Positions 17,294 through 29,066 of a stretch of DNA of 32,000 bases are shown here, one piece after another. The stretch is taken from contig NZ_LN885086.1 of NCBI RefSeq assembly GCF_001458695.1, positions 1,500,001-1,532,000 on the forward strand. The letters run 5' to 3'. The translations under genes and the position numbers were made by a program. The stretch is from Candidatus Nitrospira inopinata (GTDB lineage: Bacteria; Nitrospirota; Nitrospiria; Nitrospirales; Nitrospiraceae). The notes beneath the pieces were generated by a model. It saw only the letters and a list, made by a program, of their open reading frames with translations, had not been told where the DNA came from and made no database searches. Numbering within the stretch: the stretch's first letter is position 1; each line of letters opens with the position of its first letter.

Positions 17294-17397
17294 CACCCGC
17301 TAATGCACGTCACGTCGCCCGGCTACTTGACCGTCGCCTCCCGAACGTCCGGTTTCGTACGCGGTTGAGCGGATAGATGCAAAAAGGAGAGCACGCC

Positions 17398-19341
17398 ATG
17401 TCGATTCTCAAAAACATCAACAGCCCGGCTGATTTGAAGCGAGTGTCTCCTGATCGGTTTCCGGCGTTGGCGCAAGAGATTCGTGAGCAGATCATCGATG
17501 CGGTTTCCTCGGTGGGAGGACACCTGGCCTCCAATCTCGGCGTGGTGGAATTGACGATCGCGTTGCACTATCTGCTGGATACACCGACGGACAAGATCGT
17601 ATGGGATACCAGCAATCAATGTTACGCCCACAAACTGCTGACCGGGAGGAGGGAGCGGTTCCATACTCTGAGACAGTATGGCGGGCTCAGCGGTTTCTGT
17701 AAGCGGGAGGAAAGCGAATACGATACCTTCAACGCCGGGCATGCGGGGACCGGAGTCTCCGCCGCGTTTGGGATGGTGGAGGCGCGCGAACAGTTGGGGC
17801 AGAAACACAAAATCGTCTGCGTCGTAGGGGACGGCGCGATGACGGCCGGCATGACGCTGGAAGGGCTTCACCATGCCGGCGGCATGGGCAAGGATTTTTT
17901 GGTGATCTTGAACGATAATCAAATGTCCATTTCCAAGAACGTCGGAGCCATTTCGGCGTATCTGAGCCGGACGATCACCGGAGAATTTTACGGAAAGGTG
18001 CGTCAGGAGACGGGCCAATTGCTGGGGAAAATTCCGCACATCGGTTCGGACATGCAAAAGCTGGCTCGACGAGCGGAGGAGCTGGCCAAAGGCGTGATTC
18101 TGCCGGGATTGCTCTTTGAAGAATTGGGATTTCAATACAGCGGACCCATCGACGGGCATAACTTCGAGCACCTGCTTCCCACGATCGAGAACGTGGTGAA
18201 AATGAGAGGGCCGGTCCTGCTGCACGTGGTGACGAAAAAGGGGCTCGGCTACGAGCCGGCCATGAAGAACCCCGTCTGGTTTCATGCCTGTCCTCCGTTC
18301 GTGCGGGAAACGGGCGCGCCGGCCAAGAAAGCGGCTCGGCCGTCCTATACGGCGATCGCGATCGAGACGTTGATCAAGCAGGCTCGCCAAGACAGGCGGA
18401 TCGTCGCCATTACCGCGGCCATGTGCGAAGGGACGGGGCTGACGGCATTCGAAAAAGAATTTCCCGATCGTCTCTACGACGTGGGGATTGCGGAGCAGCA
18501 CGCGGTGACGTTTGCGGCGGGATTGGCGGCGCAGGGGGTCAAACCGGTCGTGGCCATGTACGCCACGTTCCTTCAGCGCGCCTACGATCAAGTCGTGCAC
18601 GACGTCGCGACGCAAGATCTTCCCGTGGCGTTTCTCATCGACCGGGGCGGGCTTGTCGCGGAAGACGGAACGACGCACCACGGGGCGTTCGACTATGCGT
18701 ACTTGCGTCATGTCCCCAATATGGTCGTCATGGCTCCCAAAGACGAAAACGAATTGCAACACATGGTCAAAACCGCCTTGCAGCACGATGGTCCGATTTC
18801 CGTTCGCTATCCCCGCGGGGTCAGCCTCGGCGTGAAGATGGACGAGTCTCCGACGACGTTGCCGATCGGAAAAGGTGAGTTGTTGAAGGAAGGGACCGAG
18901 GTCGCCATTATTGCCGTGGGCGTCACGGTGTGGCAGGCCTATCAAGCGGCCGAGCGTCTCAGTCGGGAAGGGATTTCAACAGCCGTCGTGAACGCCAGAT
19001 TCGTAAAGCCGTTGGATCGCGAGCTTATCACGGACGTGGCCAGACGAGTTCGCCATGTCGTGACGGTGGAAGAGGGTTGTAAAATCGGGGGGTTCGGATC
19101 CGGCGTGCTGGAATTGCTCTCCGAGGCCCGCGTGACCGGCGTCACGACGAAAATTCTTGGCTTGCCGGATTGGTACATAGAGCAGGGACCTCAGGATCTT
19201 CTCCGCGAGCGATATGGATTGACGGCGGAGGGGATCTACCAAAGCGTAAAAGAACTGATCAGCGGGGCGTCGGTAGAGAGTGACCGGTTCAGCGGCGTGG
19301 CGGGAGAGTATCTCCCCCACGGTGATGAGCAGGGAAGCTGA
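17398..19341 (+). CDS. dxs: 1-deoxy-D-xylulose-5-phosphate synthase
   Basis: MSILKNINSPADLK...GGHLASNLGVVELTIALHY...GDGAMTAGM (TPP motif). AAGGAGAG lies 7 nt upstream of ATG 17398. Confidence 0.95.
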   Translation: MSILKNINSPADLKRVSPDRFPALAQEIREQIIDAVSSVGGHLASNLGVVELTIALHYLLDTPTDKIVWDTSNQCYAHKLLTGRRERFHTLRQYGGLSGFCKREESEYDTFNAGHAGTGVSAAFGMVEAREQLGQKHKIVCVVGDGAMTAGMTLEGLHHAGGMGKDFLVILNDNQMSISKNVGAISAYLSRTITGEFYGKVRQETGQLLGKIPHIGSDMQKLARRAEELAKGVILPGLLFEELGFQYSGPIDGHNFEHLLPTIENVVKMRGPVLLHVVTKKGLGYEPAMKNPVWFHACPPFVRETGAPAKKAARPSYTAIAIETLIKQARQDRRIVAITAAMCEGTGLTAFEKEFPDRLYDVGIAEQHAVTFAAGLAAQGVKPVVAMYATFLQRAYDQVVHDVATQDLPVAFLIDRGGLVAEDGTTHHGAFDYAYLRHVPNMVVMAPKDENELQHMVKTALQHDGPISVRYPRGVSLGVKMDESPTTLPIGKGELLKEGTEVAIIAVGVTVWQAYQAAERLSREGISTAVVNARFVKPLDRELITDVARRVRHVVTVEEGCKIGGFGSGVLELLSEARVTGVTTKILGLPDWYIEQGPQDLLRERYGLTAEGIYQSVKELISGASVESDRFSGVAGEYLPHGDEQGS

Positions 19342-19396: not shown

Positions 19397-20581
19397 ATGC
19401 ACATCACCAGGCGACGAACTCGGCAAATTCAGGTCGGCACGGTCAAGATCGGCGGCGATGCTCCGATTTCCGTGCAGTCGATGTGTTCCACGGATACGCG
19501 GGACGTCGAGACGACCGTCGAACAGATCCGCCAGTTGGAGGCCGTGGGGTGCGAATTGATTCGGGTCGCCGTCCCCGATGAAGAAGCCGCGGCCGCTCTC
19601 CCTCGAATCAAAGCGGCCATGACGGTGCCGCTCATTGCGGACATTCACTTTGATTACCGGCTGGCCGTGAGCGCGGCGCGTGTGGTCGATTGCGTGCGGA
19701 TCAATCCGGGCAACATCGGAGCCTGGTGGAAAGTCGAGGAAGTGATCAAGGCGGTCAATGATCGGGGCATTCCGATTCGTATCGGCGTCAACGGCGGATC
19801 GTTGGAAAGGCCGTTGTTGGAGAAGTACGGCTGGCCTTCGCCCGAAGCGCTCTCCGAGTCGGCGCTCAATGCGGTCCATGCGTTGGAGGACGTCGGGTTC
19901 ACCAACATGAAAGTCTCGCTGAAGGCGTCGGACGTGCACCATGCGATCGATGCCTATTGGCTGTTCGCCCATCAGTCGGATTATCCCCTCCATATTGGGA
20001 TTACCGAAGCGGGAACGGCGATGACCGGCGCCGTCAAATCGGCGATCGGCCTCGGCTATCTGTTGGCGAACGGAATCGGGGATACGTTGCGCGTCTCGCT
20101 CGCGGCCGATCCGGTGGAAGAGGTCAAGGTCGGATTTGAAATTTTGAAGTCTCTCGAGCTGCGGCATCGCGGTATTAACGTCATCGCCTGCCCGACGTGC
20201 GGTCGAGTGGAGATCGACGTCGTGCGAATGGCGAATGAATTGGAGAAGAAGCTCGGCCATATCAAAACGCCGCTCAATGTGTCGGTGCTGGGCTGTGTCG
20301 TCAACGGCATCGGCGAAGGCAAGGAGGCCGACATCGGAATCGCCGGCGGCGAAGGCAAGGGCATATTGTTCAAGAAAGGCAAGCTCGTTCGGAAGGTGCC
20401 GATGGAAGAATTGATGGACACATTGATCGAGGAAGTCGAACAGCTTGCCAAGGAGAAAGAAGCCGAGGGTAACGAAAAGGCGGTCTCTCACACGGATTCC
20501 TCGGGATGGCAACCGGGTGCGTCTCAGACGGATCGCCCCTCAACGCTGGGAAGAGAAATTCCCGTCCTGCCTCACCGGTAA
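19397..20581 (+). CDS. ispG: 4-hydroxy-3-methylbut-2-en-1-yl diphosphate synthase (IspG/GcpE)
   Basis: RRRTRQIQVGTVKIGGDAPISVQSM...; cluster ligands CPTCGR and GCVVNGIGE. It carries a C-terminal low-complexity tail of about 40 aa. Confidence 0.95.
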   Translation: MHITRRRTRQIQVGTVKIGGDAPISVQSMCSTDTRDVETTVEQIRQLEAVGCELIRVAVPDEEAAAALPRIKAAMTVPLIADIHFDYRLAVSAARVVDCVRINPGNIGAWWKVEEVIKAVNDRGIPIRIGVNGGSLERPLLEKYGWPSPEALSESALNAVHALEDVGFTNMKVSLKASDVHHAIDAYWLFAHQSDYPLHIGITEAGTAMTGAVKSAIGLGYLLANGIGDTLRVSLAADPVEEVKVGFEILKSLELRHRGINVIACPTCGRVEIDVVRMANELEKKLGHIKTPLNVSVLGCVVNGIGEGKEADIGIAGGEGKGILFKKGKLVRKVPMEELMDTLIEEVEQLAKEKEAEGNEKAVSHTDSSGWQPGASQTDRPSTLGREIPVLPHR

Positions 20582-20693: not shown

Positions 20694-22025
20694 ATGAGTC
20701 CTTGGGTCGGAGCGTTCATGGCATCCCCTCTTGCGAGAAGGGTGGTCACCCTTGTTCTCGTGATTGCCGCAGGGATACATGGGTACATTATCTCCTTCGG
20801 GCGATCCTTTCACTTTCGAGATATCGACATCCATCGCGAGATCGGCAGGCGCTTTCTCTCGGGAGAGTATCTCTACGCCAATGACTACTGTTACATGTAT
20901 CTGCCGACCACCGGCATCTATTTCGCTCCCCTGCTGTTTTTCGAACGCAATCTGAGCTTGGTCCTGCGTTACGCCGTTGCGATCGGCTGTTTGGTGATGA
21001 CGATCAGGCTGTTTCAACGGATGTTGGGAGTCGAGACAAGCGCAAGGCCGGCGAATCGCTTATGGCTGGGAGTGGGGGCCGGTGTGCTGGTCCTGCAGTT
21101 CATCCTGAACGATTTGGACGATGGCGGGCCCCATCTTATTCTACTGGGCATCTTGACCGGCGGGCTCTATGCGATATGGGTGGGGAGAGAACGGCTCGGC
21201 GCGGCGTTCGTCGGGCTCGGCATCGCGCTCAAACTCACTCCCGCTCTCTTCGTGCTTTTGTTCGCATGGAAACGGCAGTGGCGTGTGGCCACCTATACTG
21301 TCCTGGCCGTTTTCTTTTGGATTCTGTTGCCTCTCCCGTACATGGGGGCGGCAAGTTGGCGGGACCACCATGTGGAATGGATCAACAATGCACTGTTGTC
21401 CGTGTTTGACCGTCAAGTAGAGGGACGACAAGAAAACGAGCTGCAAAAGGCCAATCTTTCCTTGCGGCACACAATGCTGCGATACCTCGTCGCTTATCCA
21501 AGGACTCATCGGCTTCGCCAAGTTGATCCCGAGTACAGGCCGGTGTTGGATCTTCCCTCCCCGGTTGCCAACGCAATCGTCGGTGCTGCTGCGCTCGGCC
21601 TGCTCGCTTTTTTCGCACGGACCAGCAAGCGGTCGTTCGATGGACCTGGAGATCCCACGTGGGCGAAGGATTGCGCCGGCACCTTGATGTTGGCCCTGTT
21701 TTTGTCTCCCATTACGTGGGATCAACACTTGGTGTGGATGATTCCCGCGGCCTGCGTCGTGGTGGCGGCCGCAGCGCGAATAAACGGCCAATTGAGTCGA
21801 GTCGGGTATGTCATGCTGGGGCTTTATATTGTGCTGACGGTGGTCCTGAATTACGAAGTGGTGGGCTCCGCGAAATGGGAAATGCTGAAGAGTTATCATC
21901 ATCTCGGAATTGCCATGTTCATTTTATTTGGACTGCTGTTACGAAGCGATCCCTCGCCGAAAACCTATCAATCTTCTCTCGGAGACCGATTCACGCAGCC
22001 TTCGAACGTGGTCGGACAGAACTGA
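20694..22025 (+). CDS. Polytopic membrane protein, GT87/DUF2029-like (GT-C fold) glycosyltransferase
   Basis: At least 9 hydrophobic segments. The first loop FRDIDIHREIGRRFLSGEYLY...YMYLP resembles the DUF2029/GT87 acidic-loop motif. An alternative start is ATG 20718, preceded by GGAG. Confidence 0.55.
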   Translation: MSPWVGAFMASPLARRVVTLVLVIAAGIHGYIISFGRSFHFRDIDIHREIGRRFLSGEYLYANDYCYMYLPTTGIYFAPLLFFERNLSLVLRYAVAIGCLVMTIRLFQRMLGVETSARPANRLWLGVGAGVLVLQFILNDLDDGGPHLILLGILTGGLYAIWVGRERLGAAFVGLGIALKLTPALFVLLFAWKRQWRVATYTVLAVFFWILLPLPYMGAASWRDHHVEWINNALLSVFDRQVEGRQENELQKANLSLRHTMLRYLVAYPRTHRLRQVDPEYRPVLDLPSPVANAIVGAAALGLLAFFARTSKRSFDGPGDPTWAKDCAGTLMLALFLSPITWDQHLVWMIPAACVVVAAAARINGQLSRVGYVMLGLYIVLTVVLNYEVVGSAKWEMLKSYHHLGIAMFILFGLLLRSDPSPKTYQSSLGDRFTQPSNVVGQN

Positions 22026-22674: not shown

Positions 22675-23289
22675 TATTTGAAAGAGTCTCGTATCTCATC
22701 CGATCATTCGCTTGCCCGTCGAGATAGCCGCCTGATGATCAAAAAAGAGCTTGTTATCTATCACTTGGGAGAAGCTTGCAACAACTGTAGTTGGTTGGGA
22801 GCTCTGTCCCAAGAGGCTAGCAGGAGAGCGGTGTCAACCTGACCGCTCTGCGGCAGGTAAAGCGTGGCACGGTCTATGCGTGACTCTACGTAGCTGTTTT
22901 GAGCAGAGCCATTGCCCTGCGAGGATGCCCGAGGATGCCATGGAAAGGAGATGGCAGAGAAGGAAGGATGGTCGCAATGATGGGTTGACTGGCGGCGATG
23001 GGTCTCAATGGTCTTGCCTGGTTCCATCAGGCCCACTGTGGGTTAAAGGACAGCTTGTGAGCAGAAGAGTGAAGAAGGTGCTGAATTCTGGCCGGGGAGA
23101 AGCGGCATTCACGGCATAGGCAAAGAGATGATGAAAAAGGGGTGATGAAACACATGGGACGAAGCCGTCGTTGACATGAGGTTTGGGGAAGGAAAGGTCG
23201 CCAGGTTGGGGTTGCTAAGCCGCATGTCGCGAACAGATGTTCGGCGATGGCGCAAGGACGCATTCATACCTAAGGATGGAGGTGCAGCG

Positions 23290-24648
23290 ATGACCCGTAA
23301 AGATGAAGCGAGTGCACTGGCAACATTCGGGGATATTCCATGTTGCCCCAATCTGGACACGGAACCGGTGTGTGACGTGATCGATTTGCGCCGTCGATTG
23401 GTCTTCCCGACCAAGGTGCGTACAGAGAACGGGCAAGTGGTCAGGGTTGAAGTAATCTTTCATATCCGCTTTAAACGCTGCGCGGGTTCGCTGGCGTTGG
23501 GTGATCTGGTTTATACGACTACGTTGCTGCCGGGAGAAAAGGTCAGGCTGGCGACCACGGACCGACGCAGTCGGTTCAGCTTCGACAGCGAGACGAATCT
23601 GAGCTATCGAAGCGAGCAGATGTCGGAAGAGCAATACCGAATGTCGGCGCTTCGCACATTCATGACGGATGAGAATGTCGTGGATCGCGGTCGCGACCGA
23701 GCCTCATCAAGCGGTTCGTGGGATTTTCACGGAGACGCCAGCGGCGGCCTCGGCTTCTTTTCGGTCAGCGCCGATACGAACGCACGGGGGAGCCACAATG
23801 CCCAGTCCGCTCGTGATTATCTTCGCGAACATCGCGCTCATGCCGAGATGGCCGATCACCAATCGGTGGAAGCGACACGGAAGGCGCACTCGCTTTCTAT
23901 TGGCGAGGTTTCTTCTCGAACGCACAAAGAGGGTGAATCGCAAGAACATTTCGAGTCATCCTCACGGGAGTTCAGCAACCCCAATCATTGTCATGCGATC
24001 ACGTTTCTCTTTTACCGCATCAATAAGACCGAGACGATCAAGCTCGAACTGGTGTCGATTGAGCGCCGTGTCATTGATCCGGTGGCGCTCATGCCGGTGC
24101 CGGCGAATCCTCTGCGTACGATCGGGCAAGTTTCCACGATACCTCAGGAGGTCCCGGCCACGAGCAAGACTCGGTTGGAAGTGGAGGCGCGGGCGCTCCA
24201 GAGCGAAGCCCAGTATGCACAAGCGGCGGGGGGAGGCGGCGTGACGCTCGGCCGTTTGGCGCTGACAACGGTTTCCTCCGCCGCCCCGGTCGTTGAATTG
24301 GGCAGACAGGACCCTCTTTCCAAGGAACTGCGAAACGCCGCATTGGCTGAAGTAGATAAGCAACTGGCGGAAGAAGGATTGATCGAAAAGGTCGGTGGGC
24401 CGGTGTCCAAGCGCGCGCAGGAAGAGTTTGGATACGAACGTAAGACCGCCCTGCCGACGGCGGGCGTGATCGTCAAAGGGTGTCTGGATATCTGCAATGT
24501 ATGCGAGCCTGAACTGCAAAGAAAAATGCAGCTCGAGCTGGAACGGATGGAATTGGAAAACCAGCTTCTGAAACGCAAGATCGAGCTGCTCGACAAGGCG
24601 CAGGAGTATCGTTGTTGCCCTGAAGGGGCGAAGGAGGAGAACGGTTGA
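23290..24648 (+). CDS. Hypothetical 452-aa protein: N-terminal beta-rich globular region, Ser/Gly/His/charged low-complexity centre, C-terminal coiled coil, paired-Cys motifs; no signal peptide or TM segment
   Basis: Long ORF with protein-like composition. GGAGGTG lies 6 nt upstream of ATG 23290 (the track ORF starts at 23176). Motifs: IPCCPNLD, TTLLPGEKVRL, NPNHCHAITFLFYRI, CLDICNVCEPE, LQRKMQLELERMELENQLLKRKIELLDKAQEYRCCPEG. Confidence 0.7.
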   Translation: MTRKDEASALATFGDIPCCPNLDTEPVCDVIDLRRRLVFPTKVRTENGQVVRVEVIFHIRFKRCAGSLALGDLVYTTTLLPGEKVRLATTDRRSRFSFDSETNLSYRSEQMSEEQYRMSALRTFMTDENVVDRGRDRASSSGSWDFHGDASGGLGFFSVSADTNARGSHNAQSARDYLREHRAHAEMADHQSVEATRKAHSLSIGEVSSRTHKEGESQEHFESSSREFSNPNHCHAITFLFYRINKTETIKLELVSIERRVIDPVALMPVPANPLRTIGQVSTIPQEVPATSKTRLEVEARALQSEAQYAQAAGGGGVTLGRLALTTVSSAAPVVELGRQDPLSKELRNAALAEVDKQLAEEGLIEKVGGPVSKRAQEEFGYERKTALPTAGVIVKGCLDICNVCEPELQRKMQLELERMELENQLLKRKIELLDKAQEYRCCPEGAKEENG

Positions 24649-24743
24649 TAGCGGTGTCTGTTAAGAAAGAAGACCTCTAAAACGATGGGGCGGTTTTTTA
24701 TCGAGAAAGATTTTTTACTCTCTTTCATAGGAGGATGACAGTC

Positions 24744-26921
24744 ATGGCAATACCAATGCAAGGAGCATGGACGGTTAGAGTAAAATCAAAGAGCGCCGCT
24801 TTCCCTCAGCGATTCATTATAGCTGGGGCCGATTCTGGTAATGGTACCTATGCGGGCGATGTTGGAACGCCACCCGTTTTCGTCACAGGGACAAACTGGC
24901 GTATTCAGATTCAAAATAATCCGGGCAGTGGTTTCATTGATTCGGCGGAGCAGATTAAATTTCCGGTAGTTGTCGGCTCCGAGTACCAATTCGACATCGA
25001 GAGCAATGATGCAGGACCAGATCAGGACTTCAATGACCTGATTCTGACCTGCTCGACTCCCGTTACTGCGACGGATTTCATTGTCTATGGACACGCGAGT
25101 TCATACAGCGGGCGATGTTTTTTCCCCTGTGGGCGTGGTTGGCTGGTTATCGATTCCCACGCGAGCCTGGCGTCTGCACTCAAGTATCCGGCTATTCGGA
25201 AGGCAATCGAAACTGTCTATCCGGAGCGAGCACGAATCAAGCCGATCCCTCAACCGGACCCTCCGCCGTTCGTTCCGATGATGATCCCGCTGAGCGACGA
25301 TCAGCTGATCCCCTCGAAACGTGCGCAAGTCCTCCGTTTACCTAAAGAAGTAGGGAGGTTGAAACAAGCAGCAAAAGCCTCCGAAGGAGGAGAGCATGCG
25401 TTTTCTCTACGGACAGCGGCCATCACGACGGTGGTTGAAAAATCCAGTTTCGTCATAGATCGAATCGGCATCGGTTCCATCGTCGACAAGCTCATACCGT
25501 TGTGCAGCACGGAAACATTGGCCGGCTTCCCTGTCAGTTTTCAAGAGTACGACCGCACCAGTGCCGAACTTGCCGGCGGTCCATATACCGGTACCGGTAC
25601 CAGAGAAGACCTTGGGCAGACCGTGACGGATCGGAATGGTAACTATATTTTCAGATTCTCGATCCCCATCGCCAAGTTCATTGAAGAGAGCAACGTCGAT
25701 GTCGCCCTAGGAGAGGATGAGGTTGTGCAATCGATGCCGGATCTCATCGTCAAATTATTGGATGCGATGGCTCCTGGTGGTGTGGCTTTCGAGAGCGCGC
25801 CTTACTGGAACGTGCCTGTGCTTAAACGTATTGATCTGTGCTTCCCCAAGCCGGCACGAACGGGGTGCCAGGGAGGCCGTAACATCCAGGCTCTGGGCGC
25901 CATTCGTCTGGGCATCTCAGATACGGTTTTCGATGGCGACGGACGAATCACCTGCACGGATACCTCGCTTCCGGATGTCCCGCAGGCCCGCTGCGCCGCG
26001 TGGTCTGGAAGAGTGCGTCTCTTCGGCTGTTTCATCGGCAGCGGAACCCCGGTGACACAGTATACGATTCGTCATCGGCGTAAAAACATGAGCACGGGTG
26101 TCTGGAGTTCCTGGGAATTTTATCAAGAGGGAATGTTCCTCCAGAAGATAGGTTTTATAGCTCCACAACAAATCGGGCCCTTTGATCGCATGCTCGAGGT
26201 GGTGAACGGACAGCCGAAGATGCTGGCCAAGGCCTATGACAATATTGAGCAAAATTTGGCGTGGGCCGCATCGGACTGGTTCTTGAAAGCCGTTATCAGC
26301 ACAGGAGGCGGCACTCCACCCTACGCTCCTTCGCCGGGAACGGTCCAATTCCAGATACAGGGATACGACGCCGCCGGGAATTTTGTCGTCGGTGCCACCG
26401 ACACGGTGACGATGTATATCGATAATACGGTGCCCGCTCTCGACTTGCCGTCGGTGCAGATGGGGACGCAGACGGGAGGCAACTGCGCGCTGTTCAGCCT
26501 TACCGGCGAACCGAACCCTGCAACGCTCACCGTGCGCTTCAAGGCCGTTCAGAATCAGGGGTTCCTAGGGCGATACGATCTTACTGTGCGCAAGGGGAAC
26601 AGCGGGGACTTCCCCGTCATGGCAACAACGGGACCGAGTGGTGAATCGAGCGGTGCGCTCTCGCGTGTTTATGGGCATGGAAGTGCCACCACCTGTGGGC
26701 AACTGTTCGGTACGCGTCCCCCCGACGAGCCGTTAGCCGATGCCGCCGACTACGTGACGGCGTACATCGTTCCTTCCCCCAGTGGTAACTGGCTTGATCC
26801 AGGGCAACCGTTTTGTACCTTCTCGGTGAATGTCAGTGCGACCATGCGCCGGACCAATGGGTATAACTCGGCCGAAGATGGATTTGGACCGGTGCAATAT
26901 CTTTTGGGCATTCAACAGTGA
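24744..26921 (+). CDS. Hypothetical 725-aa protein with an N-terminal LecB(PA-IIL)/DUF4114-like calcium-lectin signature, a Pro-rich linker and a large beta-rich C-terminal region
   Basis: AGGAGG lies 9 nt upstream of ATG 24744. N-terminal domain ...FDIESNDAGPDQDFNDLILTCS (DxDFND loop). Linker IKPIPQPDPPPFVPMM. A prealbumin-like TVTDRNGNYIFRF motif and an Ig-like MYIDNTVP motif. No signal peptide or TM segment. Confidence 0.7.
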   Translation: MAIPMQGAWTVRVKSKSAAFPQRFIIAGADSGNGTYAGDVGTPPVFVTGTNWRIQIQNNPGSGFIDSAEQIKFPVVVGSEYQFDIESNDAGPDQDFNDLILTCSTPVTATDFIVYGHASSYSGRCFFPCGRGWLVIDSHASLASALKYPAIRKAIETVYPERARIKPIPQPDPPPFVPMMIPLSDDQLIPSKRAQVLRLPKEVGRLKQAAKASEGGEHAFSLRTAAITTVVEKSSFVIDRIGIGSIVDKLIPLCSTETLAGFPVSFQEYDRTSAELAGGPYTGTGTREDLGQTVTDRNGNYIFRFSIPIAKFIEESNVDVALGEDEVVQSMPDLIVKLLDAMAPGGVAFESAPYWNVPVLKRIDLCFPKPARTGCQGGRNIQALGAIRLGISDTVFDGDGRITCTDTSLPDVPQARCAAWSGRVRLFGCFIGSGTPVTQYTIRHRRKNMSTGVWSSWEFYQEGMFLQKIGFIAPQQIGPFDRMLEVVNGQPKMLAKAYDNIEQNLAWAASDWFLKAVISTGGGTPPYAPSPGTVQFQIQGYDAAGNFVVGATDTVTMYIDNTVPALDLPSVQMGTQTGGNCALFSLTGEPNPATLTVRFKAVQNQGFLGRYDLTVRKGNSGDFPVMATTGPSGESSGALSRVYGHGSATTCGQLFGTRPPDEPLADAADYVTAYIVPSPSGNWLDPGQPFCTFSVNVSATMRRTNGYNSAEDGFGPVQYLLGIQQ

Positions 26922-26922
26922 G

Positions 26923-27282
26923 ATGCGTTTCTATTGGCTGATTATAGGAGTGCTCGCTGTCTGGAGGGTAACCCACCTGTTCTCCGCCGAAGACGGGCCG
27001 TGGCAGTTACTGGCTCGGCTTCGGCGGTGGGCAGGTGAGGGACTTCTTGCAGAGCTGCTGGATTGTTTCTATTGCCTAAGTCTCTGGATTGCAATGCCAA
27101 TAGCCTGGTTGATCGGAGAAGAATGGAAAGAACAAGTGTTGCTGTGGCTCTCTTTTTCAGGAGGAGCCATTCTTTTAGAGCGGGTGACTGGCCGAAGCCA
27201 CATTGCTCCGGCCTTATATCATGAAGAGCCTACATATAAGGAGCATAGAGGTGAAGACCATGGGATGCTGCGGAAAGAATAG
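26923..27282 (+). CDS. Small membrane protein, DUF1360-like
   Basis: The ATG lies 1 nt after the upstream stop (TGAgATG). MRFYWLIIGVLAVWRVTHLFSAEDGPW...LLDCFYCLSLWIAMPIAWL matches the DUF1360 pattern as I recall it (W/YR.T.L...D, C..C.S.W). It has 3 hydrophobic segments. Confidence 0.55.
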   Translation: MRFYWLIIGVLAVWRVTHLFSAEDGPWQLLARLRRWAGEGLLAELLDCFYCLSLWIAMPIAWLIGEEWKEQVLLWLSFSGGAILLERVTGRSHIAPALYHEEPTYKEHRGEDHGMLRKE

Positions 27283-27547
27283 ACCGAATCTGCAGAGAGA
27301 GGACGGTGTCATCAGACAACCAATCGTATCTGTTCATCGAACGCCGGACTTTCACTATTTTGAATATATTGGAAGAACGAGCCTTACCGCCCTAGGCCCT
27401 ATCACGGGCAGGCATTACCGGTTTGAGCGTTCAGGTGCCAGAGTTGCTATAGATGCGCGTGATGCCCCATCAATGATTGGAGTGCCAAACTTGCGGAAAG
27501 TTCATCTGCCGGATGAGGCAGGGAACAATAGGATTGAGCCTAGATGA
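27260..27547 (+). CDS. Hypothetical 95-aa soluble protein beginning MGCCGKN
   Basis: ATG 27260 is preceded by GAGGTG (6 nt) and overlaps the upstream gene by 23 nt. Its composition looks globular (FHYFEYIGRTSLTALGPITGRHYRFERSGARVAIDARDAPSMIGVPNLRKV). Confidence 0.5.
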   Translation: MGCCGKNRPNLQREDGVIRQPIVSVHRTPDFHYFEYIGRTSLTALGPITGRHYRFERSGARVAIDARDAPSMIGVPNLRKVHLPDEAGNNRIEPR

Positions 27548-28049: not shown

Positions 28050-29066
28050 ATGGCCGTCCCCGTATCTCAAATGTTGACCGTCGCGAGCTACGTGCTTTCG
28101 AAAAAATTGAAGGGAGTCAAACGCTATCCGCTGGTGCTAATGCTCGAGCCCTTGTTTCGTTGCAACCTGGCTTGCGCCGGATGCGGCAAGATTCAGTATC
28201 CCGACCATATTCTTGATAAACGGTTGACCCCCGAACAGTGCTGGGCCGCAGCCGAGGAGTGCGGCGCGCCGATCGTGGCGATTCCGGGCGGCGAACCACT
28301 CATTCATCCGGAAATCGGGCGGATTGTCGAGGGGTTGGTGGCGCAAAAACGGTATCTCTATGTGTGCACGAACGCGATTTTGCTGGAAAGGAAACTCAAG
28401 GAGTTCAAGCCGTCGCAGTATTTGACGTTCAGCGTGCACATGGACGGGCTCAAGAACGAGCATGATATGGCCGTCTGCCGTGACGGTGTGTATGAGATCG
28501 CCGTCAGGGCGATCAAAGAAGCGTTGAAACTAGGCCATCGTGTGACCACCAATACCACGCTCTTCGATGATGCCAATCCCGATCGAGTGCGCCAGTTTTT
28601 TGATGAAATGATGATGCTTGGCGTTGAGGGGATGATGATTTCGCCCGGCTACAGTTATCAAAAAGCCCCTGACCAGCAACACTTCCTCAAGAAAGCCAAA
28701 ACCAAAGAATTGTTCTCGAAAATTCTCAGCCGGCCCAAGAGCTCATGGAAGTTCAATCAGTCGCCGCTGTTCTTGGATTTCCTGATGGGGAAACGAGACT
28801 ATCACTGTACGCCGTGGGGCAATCCCACCTATAACATTTTTGGATGGCAAAGGCCCTGTTATCTGTTGCAGGACGGCTACGCGAAAACCTTCCAGGAATT
28901 GTTGGATACGACGGAATGGCAGAACTATGGCACGAGCAAAAACGAGAAGTGCGCCGAGTGCATGGTCCACTGCGGGTATGAGGCGTCGGCGGTGAACGAT
29001 ACGTTCGGCTCGCTGTCAGGGTTCGTGCGCACCGCCAAACTCACATTATTGCCGACGCTGCGATAG
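28050..29066 (+). CDS. hpnH: Adenosylhopane synthase (hopanoid biosynthesis radical SAM protein HpnH)
   Basis: MAVPVSQMLTVASYVLSKKLKGVKRYPLVLMLEPLFRCNLACAGCGKIQYP (CxxxCxxC) and a C-terminal Cys cluster (CAECMVHCGYE). GGAAGGAG is the RBS. Confidence 0.9.
   Translation: MAVPVSQMLTVASYVLSKKLKGVKRYPLVLMLEPLFRCNLACAGCGKIQYPDHILDKRLTPEQCWAAAEECGAPIVAIPGGEPLIHPEIGRIVEGLVAQKRYLYVCTNAILLERKLKEFKPSQYLTFSVHMDGLKNEHDMAVCRDGVYEIAVRAIKEALKLGHRVTTNTTLFDDANPDRVRQFFDEMMMLGVEGMMISPGYSYQKAPDQQHFLKKAKTKELFSKILSRPKSSWKFNQSPLFLDFLMGKRDYHCTPWGNPTYNIFGWQRPCYLLQDGYAKTFQELLDTTEWQNYGTSKNEKCAECMVHCGYEASAVNDTFGSLSGFVRTAKLTLLPTLR

Follow-up and report, generated by a model that had tools for sequence, protein, structure and literature searches.

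A divergent PA-IIL/DUF4114-like domain, predicted to bind Ca2+ and glycans, at the N-terminus of a conserved hypothetical protein of Candidatus Nitrospira inopinata

The window considered in the current analysis is a stretch of 32,000 nucleotides from the genome of Candidatus Nitrospira inopinata (contig NZ_LN885086.1, positions 1,500,001 to 1,532,000), and all positions given below are counted within it. It encodes a protein of 725 residues, referred to here as protein A, whose gene (gene A, 24744-26921, forward strand, stop codon included) is directly followed by two small genes, B and C. The first 107 residues of protein A form a domain related to the Ca-dependent lectins of the PA-IIL (LecB) and DUF4114 families. 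The list of open reading frames has the frame of A from an ATG at 24735, corresponding to 728 residues. The ATG at 24744 is taken as the true start because GGAGG lies 9 nucleotides upstream and the homologues begin with MAIPMQG, the N-termini of all of them being of the form MAIPMQG/MxIxMQG. The translation of 24744-25073 on the forward strand is MAIPMQGAW...FDIESNDAGPDQDFNDLILTCSTPVTAT, also written MAIPMQGAWTVRVKSKSAAFPQRF...YQFDIESNDAGPDQDFNDLILTCSTPVTAT. An earlier interpretation, made from the letters without database searches and referred to here as the sequence-only reading, had placed ESNDAGPDQDFNDLIL at nucleotides 24999-25046 of the gene for a 725-residue protein; these coordinates are exact and correspond to residues 86-101. 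The features of gene A and its product are as follows.

24730-24734, forward strand: Shine-Dalgarno sequence GGAGG, 9 nucleotides before ATG 24744
24744-25064, forward strand: PA-IIL/DUF4114-like calcium-lectin-fold β-sandwich of about 10 strands, residues 1-107 (AlphaFold2 model, Foldseek, hhalign)
25002-25037, forward strand: predicted Ca2+-binding loop S-N-D-A-G-P-D-Q-D-F-N-D, residues 87-98 (register in phmmer and hhalign, conservation)
25065-25238, forward strand: extension of the domain, residues 108-165, with a β-hairpin (111-122/133-136) followed by helices (139-163) (DSSP of the full-length model, pLDDT about 70-89)
25239-25448, forward strand: Pro-rich linker, residues 166-235, with variable and gapped alignment columns (low model confidence)
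25449-26921, forward strand: almost all-β body of about 490 residues, residues 236-725 with the stop codon, a string of β-sandwich domains (pLDDT mostly 80-96)

The fold of the N-terminal domain has been analysed with two AlphaFold2 models. The model of the full-length protein, built from an alignment of 30 sequences, has a mean predicted local distance difference test (pLDDT) value of 81 and a predicted template modelling (pTM) score of 0.73, and residues 1-120 are modelled with pLDDT of about 87-94. Comparison of this model with the PDB using Foldseek matches all the branches of the PA-IIL family with probability 1.00 and template modelling (TM) scores, TMt, of 0.57-0.66. These include CV-IIL (2boi), BC2L-A (2vnv/2wr9/4aoc), LecB (1gzt/1ous/5a6q), RS-IIL (1uqx) and the C-terminal domain of BC2L-C (2xr4), and the alignments span the whole lectin of about 114 residues. 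The sponge protein thrombocorticin (7f9f) is matched more weakly by the full-length model (TMt 0.44). With a model of the domain only (residues 1-112, pLDDT 94.3, pTM 0.86), the top 24 matches in the PDB are all lectins of the PA-IIL family, namely LecB, CV-IIL, RS-IIL, BC2L-A, the C-terminal domain of BC2L-C and thrombocorticin, with probability 1.00 and TMq of 0.51-0.67. The first match outside the family is a circular permutant of superoxide dismutase with an E-value of 0.21, a gap in E-value of more than 100-fold. As the Foldseek matches are restricted to PA-IIL-family lectins, the assignment is solid at the level of the models, in which residues 1-107 adopt, as a distant relative, the small antiparallel β-sandwich fold known from LecB, where it has about 9 strands. 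The LecB-type fold proposed for the N-terminus in the sequence-only reading is thus recovered with the PA-IIL family only.

Comparisons of sequences and profiles lead to the same family. A phmmer search of PDB sequences with protein A gives LecB/PA-IIL and CV-IIL as the sole matches at E≤10; these matches are weak (E = 0.32-0.88) and specific, and pair residues 28-106 of the query with 38-112 of LecB such that the acidic loops are in register and P106 of protein A is aligned with P112 of LecB. The C-terminal sequence of LecB given in the sequence-only reading, GSEDGTDNDYNDAVVVINWPLG, is correct, and the full-length LecB sequence used here agrees with 1our_A at 100% identity. The template for hhalign was A3, an alignment of five PA-IIL lectins whose sequences had been verified. 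When the profile of the domain is enriched with divergent copies (99 sequences below 65% identity, effective number of sequences (Neff) 5), hhalign aligns it to the five lectins over 66 columns with an E-value of 2.3e-4, residues 31-102 of the query corresponding to 41-108 of LecB. The score of 27.3 lies about 7 standard deviations above the mean of a column-shuffle null (mean 11.5, standard deviation 2.2, maximum 19.7; none of the 150 shuffles reaches it), and the reversed template scores 11.0. The resemblance of the domain to the PA-IIL lectins exceeds chance.

The relationship to the two Pfam families emerges from the homologues of the domain. Among 47 members of the N-terminal domain family, DUF4114 (PF13448) is the most frequent weak match in Pfam, being found in 21 members with a best E-value of 0.0072, all below threshold. 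A weak DUF4114 match is also found in 9 of the 30 full-length members, and no other family recurs. An exhaustive HMMER search with the domain profile has identified 288 clusters at 50% identity (E≤1e-3), most of which belong to the family of about 720 residues. Some of the other carriers of the domain pass the Pfam gathering scores, which are 27 bits for DUF4114 and 21 bits for PA-IIL (PF07472), and so bear out the link to DUF4114 that had been drawn from the motif.

P0146 (1896 residues): DUF4114 40.9 bits and PA-IIL 24.7 bits, both above gathering
P0201 (971 residues): DUF4114 31.9 bits, above gathering; PA-IIL E = 0.012
P0204: DUF4114 26.5 bits, just below gathering; PA-IIL E = 0.0094

The carriers that pass in Pfam match the domain profile of protein A with E-values from 1e-39 to 1e-11, and in these related proteins the DUF4114 and PA-IIL alignments fall on the D-x-D-(F/Y)-N-D motif. 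The loop of P0268, ESEDGVDNDYDDLV, is nearly identical to the LecB loop, GSEDGTDNDYNDAV. A transitive bridge of sequences is therefore seen to link the domain of protein A to both Pfam families.

The domain is found in a variety of other architectures. P0146 has three copies, P0201 has two full copies and a partial one, and in these two proteins and P0234 (605 residues) the 2-3 copies are separated by linkers extremely rich in lysine and arginine. The copies in these three proteins alternate with conserved modules that carry 'FWGDPHF.GGDGG.FDVQG..GKTYNLL', which we take to resemble the GDPH autoproteolysis motif of VWD/RGM-type domains. The domain also occurs internally in a DUF1565/β-helix protein, in proteins of about 600 residues and in proteins of about 130-250 residues, one of the last having a leader like that of twin-arginine translocation (Tat) substrates and another a lipoprotein-like leader. 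In P0255, residues 320-421 form the extreme C-terminus of a protein with eCIS_core (PF13699; eCIS, extracellular contractile injection system) and Tox-MPTase3 (PF15639) domains, and in P0258, residues 310-410 form the extreme C-terminus of another Tox-MPTase3 protein. These fusions suggest that polymorphic toxins, or toxins delivered by eCIS, may have taken up the domain as a module for targeting. The leaders and the toxin fusions are consistent with an extracytoplasmic binding module. A further carrier, P0229 (628 residues, locus L042, 4001-5887), belongs to the group of about 600 residues and has an N-terminal lectin-like domain followed by a different body. This body includes a hydrophobic segment, and the 'GDSGS' motif at its C-terminus hints at a serine protease of the trypsin type. 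Its gene is followed by an unannotated gene for 563 residues and is flanked by transposases.

The acidic loop is the element of the domain that can be compared with the lectins residue by residue. With the enriched profile, hhalign pairs the residues of the loop as follows.

Protein A to LecB, first part of the loop: S87-S94, N88-E95, D89-D96, G91-G97, P92-T98
Protein A to LecB, second part of the loop: D93-D99, Q94-N100, D95-D101, F96-Y102, N97-N103, D98-D104

One residue of protein A, A90, is inserted relative to LecB. All the six loop ligands of LecB (E95, D96, D99, D101, N103 and D104) thus have counterparts, namely N88, D89, D93, D95, N97 and D98. In the domain model the loop sits in a β-hairpin between strands 80-88 and 99-106. 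[quoted passage not shown] The 30 full-length homologues, the most distant of which have about 45% identity, all have D84, D93 and D98, and conservation is 90% or more at N88, D89, D95 and F96. The pattern D-x-D-[FY]-[ND]-D-[LV]-[IV]-L, or one closely resembling it, is present in 119 of 120 homologues and is represented in protein A by D93-Q-D-F-N-D-L-I-L, and in 201 of 240 copies of the domain (84%) all six ligand positions are D, E or N. The equation of this loop with the Ca loop of LecB, made at first from the letters, is supported by the register and by the strong conservation in homologues; as a match to the fold has been found and the loop is conserved, the original assignment largely holds.

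The remainder of protein A is less easily classified. The hairpin of residues 108-165 contains C125 and C129, which are invariant in the full-length homologues, and protein A as a whole has 12 cysteines, 11 of them invariant among homologues. The linker has pLDDT below 50 at 167-173 and 186-235 in the full-length model. The body is conserved, with the motifs TDRNGNYIFRF, PQARCAAW and QPFCTF. A Pro-rich linker followed by β-rich domains had been anticipated from the sequence and is borne out by the model. The labels 'prealbumin-like' and 'Ig-like' that had been attached to parts of the body are plausible in view of the all-β model and find no counterpart among family matches: scans of protein A against Pfam, NCBIfam, PADLOC and PHROG give no family match. 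The Foldseek matches that fall on the body are generic, of low TM score, and to multi-β-sandwich proteins, including C3/C5 macroglobulin (MG) arrays, lambda gpJ, SiiE, strings of FN3 domains and FXIII. For an origin from phage tail or receptor-binding proteins there is no evidence, since a Foldseek search of viral structures with the full model gave only generic FN3/Ig-array matches with TM of about 0.1. A role in a defence system was rejected, there being no PADLOC match. No signal peptide, N-terminal hydrophobic segment or transmembrane helix is detected in protein A by hydropathy (maximum Kyte-Doolittle mean over 19 residues 1.33), in agreement with the sequence-only reading.

Based on these comparisons, residues 1-107 are probably (with a probability of about 0.62) a divergent PA-IIL/DUF4114 Ca-lectin head of an adhesin-like protein, in which case they would bind Ca2+ and glycan. 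The loop S87-D98 would most likely chelate Ca2+, probably as two closely spaced ions as in LecB, and by analogy with LecB a sugar would be held through coordination of its vicinal hydroxyls to the bound Ca2+. In this picture the domain would serve as a head for the Ca-dependent recognition of a ligand, on a large β-sandwich protein that is non-enzymatic and adhesin-like, the head presumably being joined to the body by the flexible Pro-rich linker.

Several observations weigh against this interpretation. The fold is substantially diverged, with TM of about 0.6, a root-mean-square deviation of 4-5 Å and 13-22% identity to the lectins. Scans for PF07472 and PF13448, the two families named in the sequence-only reading, give no reportable match for protein A itself; neither protein A nor its residues 1-110 match any Pfam family at E≤10, and none of the 47 N-domain members matches PF07472. 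A hidden Markov model (HMM) built from the 47 N-domains and searched against PDB sequences misses LecB and gives only a spurious match to EatA. The first hhalign comparison with A3, made with a profile of low diversity, has a probability of 8.5% (E = 0.004, 24 columns); with the enriched profile the probability is no higher than 44.5%, most of the similarity lying in the loop and in the strands on either side of it. As neither Pfam family is matched and the domain HMM misses LecB, residues 1-107 are a superfamily-level relative, a sub-threshold branch that is a member of neither Pfam family.

Within the predicted site, LecB N21 has only a tentative counterpart: the pairing of S17 with N21 comes solely from a global hhalign alignment of low confidence, which also pairs Q22 with LecB Q26. 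At the position of S17, 214 of the 240 copies have S, N, E or D. A subclade has D-P-[VI]-[FY]-D-D, in which the equivalent of LecB D101 (D95) is replaced by V or I, and about 15 of the 240 copies (6%), some of which are fragments, retain no more than three of these six positions for ligands. Such copies, with V/I at the position of D95 or with loss of the loop, are found in P0100, P0102, P0114 and P0120 (residues about 85-100) and in P0182, P0186, P0189, P0208, P0210, P0216, P0222, P0241, P0243, P0249 and P0257. As these loops are degenerate, the predicted Ca site appears to be dispensable in some lineages, where it would have been lost repeatedly with the rest of the protein kept. The domain is N-terminal and the chain runs on for 618 residues, so that a C-terminal carboxylate of the LecB Gly114 type is impossible and the site cannot be identical to that of LecB; it would have to be completed otherwise than by a trans carboxylate, as would that of embedded DUF4114 domains. 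Finally, as protein A has neither a signal peptide nor a transmembrane helix, an extracellular role would require some other route of export.

These points may be set beside what is known of the related proteins. Protein A shares with the PA-IIL lectins the β-sandwich and the acidic hairpin loop with its six ligand positions in register, and both LecB and protein A are without a signal peptide. It differs from them in the absence of the invariant W-P-x-G-COOH tail seen in the PA-IIL lectins of A3, in the replacement of LecB E95 by N or D, and in being a multidomain protein of 725 residues in contrast to a tetrameric lectin of about 114 residues. PA-IIL domains proper are always C-terminal or stand-alone, whereas that of protein A is N-terminal. 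BC2L-B, BC2L-C and BC2L-D carry the LecB-like domain at the C-terminus, unlike protein A. With BC2L-C and SiiE it has in common a lectin or Ca-binding module joined to further domains in an all-β, adhesin-like architecture, but its similarity to SiiE and BIg is only generic (TM below 0.2). With the DUF4114 proteins it shares the D-x-D-(F/Y)-N-D motif and a location within a large multidomain protein with no free C-terminus.

The context of the domain had been regarded as unusual in the sequence-only reading. This holds with respect to PA-IIL proper, but an N-terminal DUF4114 domain in a large multidomain protein is already known in PilY1.1 of Myxococcus xanthus (PMC9109919, PMC13190605), and the architecture is for this reason less unusual than had been claimed. 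The DUF4114 domain of PilY1.1 has been proposed as a Ca-dependent sugar-binding module, the binding of sugar having been inferred, and a D-to-A mutation of its Ca site abolishes motility at the level of the colony while pili are still assembled (PMC9109919). PilY1.1 and PilY1.2 differ from protein A in that the partner of the domain is the PilY1 β-propeller rather than unannotated β-sandwiches and in that protein A is without a signal peptide; the genomic setting is also distinct, the cassette described below having no pilus genes. The absence of a signal peptide is no argument against a surface role, because LecB is also leaderless (its chains in the PDB correspond to the full product of its open reading frame) and yet is found on the outer membrane as well as abundantly in the cytoplasm, by an export route that is unresolved (PMC3466170).

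It is conceivable, if unlikely, that the domain is a genuine relative of this fold in which Ca2+ has a structural, rigidifying or sensing role only, as it has in adhesin β-sandwich domains stabilised by Ca, and that what it recognises, if anything, is no carbohydrate but some protein or inorganic surface. Consistent with this, neither the trans carboxylate nor the LecB specificity loop (residues 22-24) is recognisably conserved in protein A, sugar binding has been directly shown for no DUF4114 domain and was only inferred in the PilY1.1 study, and Foldseek finds a resemblance of the rest of protein A to adhesins that bind Ca, SiiE among them. On the other hand, all the structurally characterised proteins with this fold and loop (LecB, RS-IIL, CV-IIL, BC2L-A, the C-terminal domain of BC2L-C and thrombocorticin) are Ca-dependent lectins, and the loop is the most conserved and exposed element of the domain, as would be expected of a site for a ligand rather than of one with a structural role alone.

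Gene A is accompanied by two small genes that are conserved with it.

26923-27282, forward strand: gene B, a small membrane protein of 119 residues that has the motif LLDCFYCLSLW, about 3 helices of hydrophobic character and a C-terminal tail that is charged (open reading frame, hydropathy)
27260-27547, forward strand: gene C, 95 residues, starting MGCCGKNR and overlapping the end of B by 23 nucleotides

The ATG of gene B lies one nucleotide past the stop codon of A. The product of B has a weak match to DUF1360 (E = 6e-4, below the cutoff) and a match to phrog_781 (E = 4.7e-8). The product of C, for which no family is found in scans of Pfam, NCBIfam, PADLOC and PHROG, has the C-terminal core FEY.G.T.LTA.GP.TG..YRF...G....VD.RDAPS...VPNLR. 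In 34 fetched loci, spread over many phyla, tblastn places B and C directly downstream of A; these are essentially all of the loci in which the downstream DNA is long enough. Across the loci B has about 115-135 residues with DCFYC(L/V)S(L/V)W, and C has about 80-95 residues with the start M(G/S/P/A)CCG. B and C are not found beside two divergent carriers of the domain (P0229 and P0253). A, B and C constitute a translationally coupled three-gene cassette.

The genes flanking the cassette differ between genomes. In the window they include the following.

17377-19341, forward strand: dxs
19397-20581, forward strand: ispG/GcpE
20694-22025, forward strand: GT87-family membrane glycosyltransferase
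28050-29066, forward strand: radical-SAM protein with DUF3463, HpnH-like

The isoprenoid/hopanoid neighbourhood has been rejected as a functional context, as the flanks are unrelated in every other genome. An open reading frame of 490 residues upstream of A (23176-24648, forward strand), which is coiled-coil-like with a charged C-terminus and has no match in Pfam, NCBIfam, PADLOC or PHROG, has likewise been rejected as a partner: it is present only in the near-identical contig of Nitrospira sp. W63 (L007, 97%) and absent beside all the other homologues of A, and is therefore not part of the unit. Promoter and terminator scans give background levels.

The cassette bears on the cellular location of protein A. 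It is distinctly unlikely that A is a cytoplasmic protein whose loop binds an intracellular ligand such as a storage or envelope-precursor glycan, a nucleotide-sugar, or a divalent-metal or phosphate species, with B and C tethering it to the inner face of the membrane. Such an arrangement would accord with the lack of a signal peptide or transmembrane helix in A, with the overlapping genes for a membrane protein (B) and a small soluble protein (C), with the location of the cassette among isoprenoid/hopanoid genes and a GT87 gene, and with the abundance of LecB in the cytoplasm. However, the unrelated flanks in every other genome make the hopanoid neighbourhood incidental, and the 11 invariant cysteines and the adhesin-like array of β-sandwiches would be more usual in a protein outside the cytoplasm. 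Sites of the LecB type normally need more free Ca2+ than the cytoplasm contains, and export signals or fusions to toxins are found in other proteins with the domain.

Convergence or chance, by which an acidic D-x-D-x-N-D motif would have arisen on a generic β-sandwich unrelated to PA-IIL/DUF4114, is very improbable: the want of a Pfam match for A, the failure of the family HMM to find LecB, the 13-22% identity and the hhalign probability below 50% would be in keeping with it, but the Foldseek matches are exclusive to the PA-IIL family by a gap in E-value of more than 100-fold over other β-sandwiches, the motif lies on a topologically equivalent hairpin and three independent alignments agree on its register, the hhalign score is about 7 standard deviations above the shuffle null, and the intermediate sequences that match both the domain profile and the Pfam models above threshold already disfavour convergence.

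The divergent Ca-lectin head is thus the preferred description of the domain, and the proteins that carry it in the arrangement of protein A are widely distributed. More than 705 homologues of protein A are present in a database clustered at 90% identity, all of them annotated as 'hypothetical' and without Pfam domains. Among the species representatives of GTDB, 35 loci have been identified in Nitrospira (95% identity for A), other Nitrospirota, Chloroflexota, Candidatus Accumulibacter, Rhodocyclaceae, Acidobacteriota (Pyrinomonadaceae, Bryobacteraceae, Thermoanaerobaculia and Terriglobia), Alpha- and Gammaproteobacteria, Longimicrobium, Eisenbacteria and Lentisphaerae. Homologues from Nitrosospira and Armatimonadota are found outside this set. 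The complete genome of Candidatus Accumulibacter phosphatis encodes the full A-B-C cassette (L026, NC_013194.1, 2008846-2017080), with 43% identity for A. The patchy distribution, the identities of 75-84% across phyla and the unrelated flanks point to a spread of the cassette among phyla by horizontal transfer.

A more specific role for the cassette, which we regard as highly doubtful, is that of a self-contained mobile module that places a lectin-adhesin in the matrix without the Sec pathway, A being released or anchored by B with C as an adaptor. In such a scheme B, which has a CxxC motif, a charged tail and a PHROG match, would act as a holin-like protein with three transmembrane segments. 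If this were so, the cassette would represent a new non-classical route of export or anchoring, and its A proteins would be matrix lectins of a new, Ca-dependent class in environmental bacteria that form flocs and biofilms, for example Nitrospira, Accumulibacter, Nitrosospira and Acidobacteriota.

The lectins of the PA-IIL/LecB family are important drug targets and are known mainly from a few proteobacterial pathogens as stand-alone or C-terminal domains of about 114 residues. The family described here is new, as are its unannotated body of β-sandwiches, the A-B-C cassette, which is invariant, and the occurrence of the family across bacteria of environmental importance. The current analysis shows that the PA-IIL fold and its Ca loop extend, below the level of detection by Pfam, into a large family of proteins in nitrifiers, polyphosphate accumulators, Acidobacteriota, Chloroflexota and others. 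The cohesion of the floc and biofilm matrix in the hosts of the cassette is poorly understood at the level of proteins. The potential role of protein A in Ca-dependent recognition of glycans would provide a testable function for a conserved 'hypothetical' cassette in organisms that are central to the treatment of wastewater and to the cycling of nitrogen in soil.

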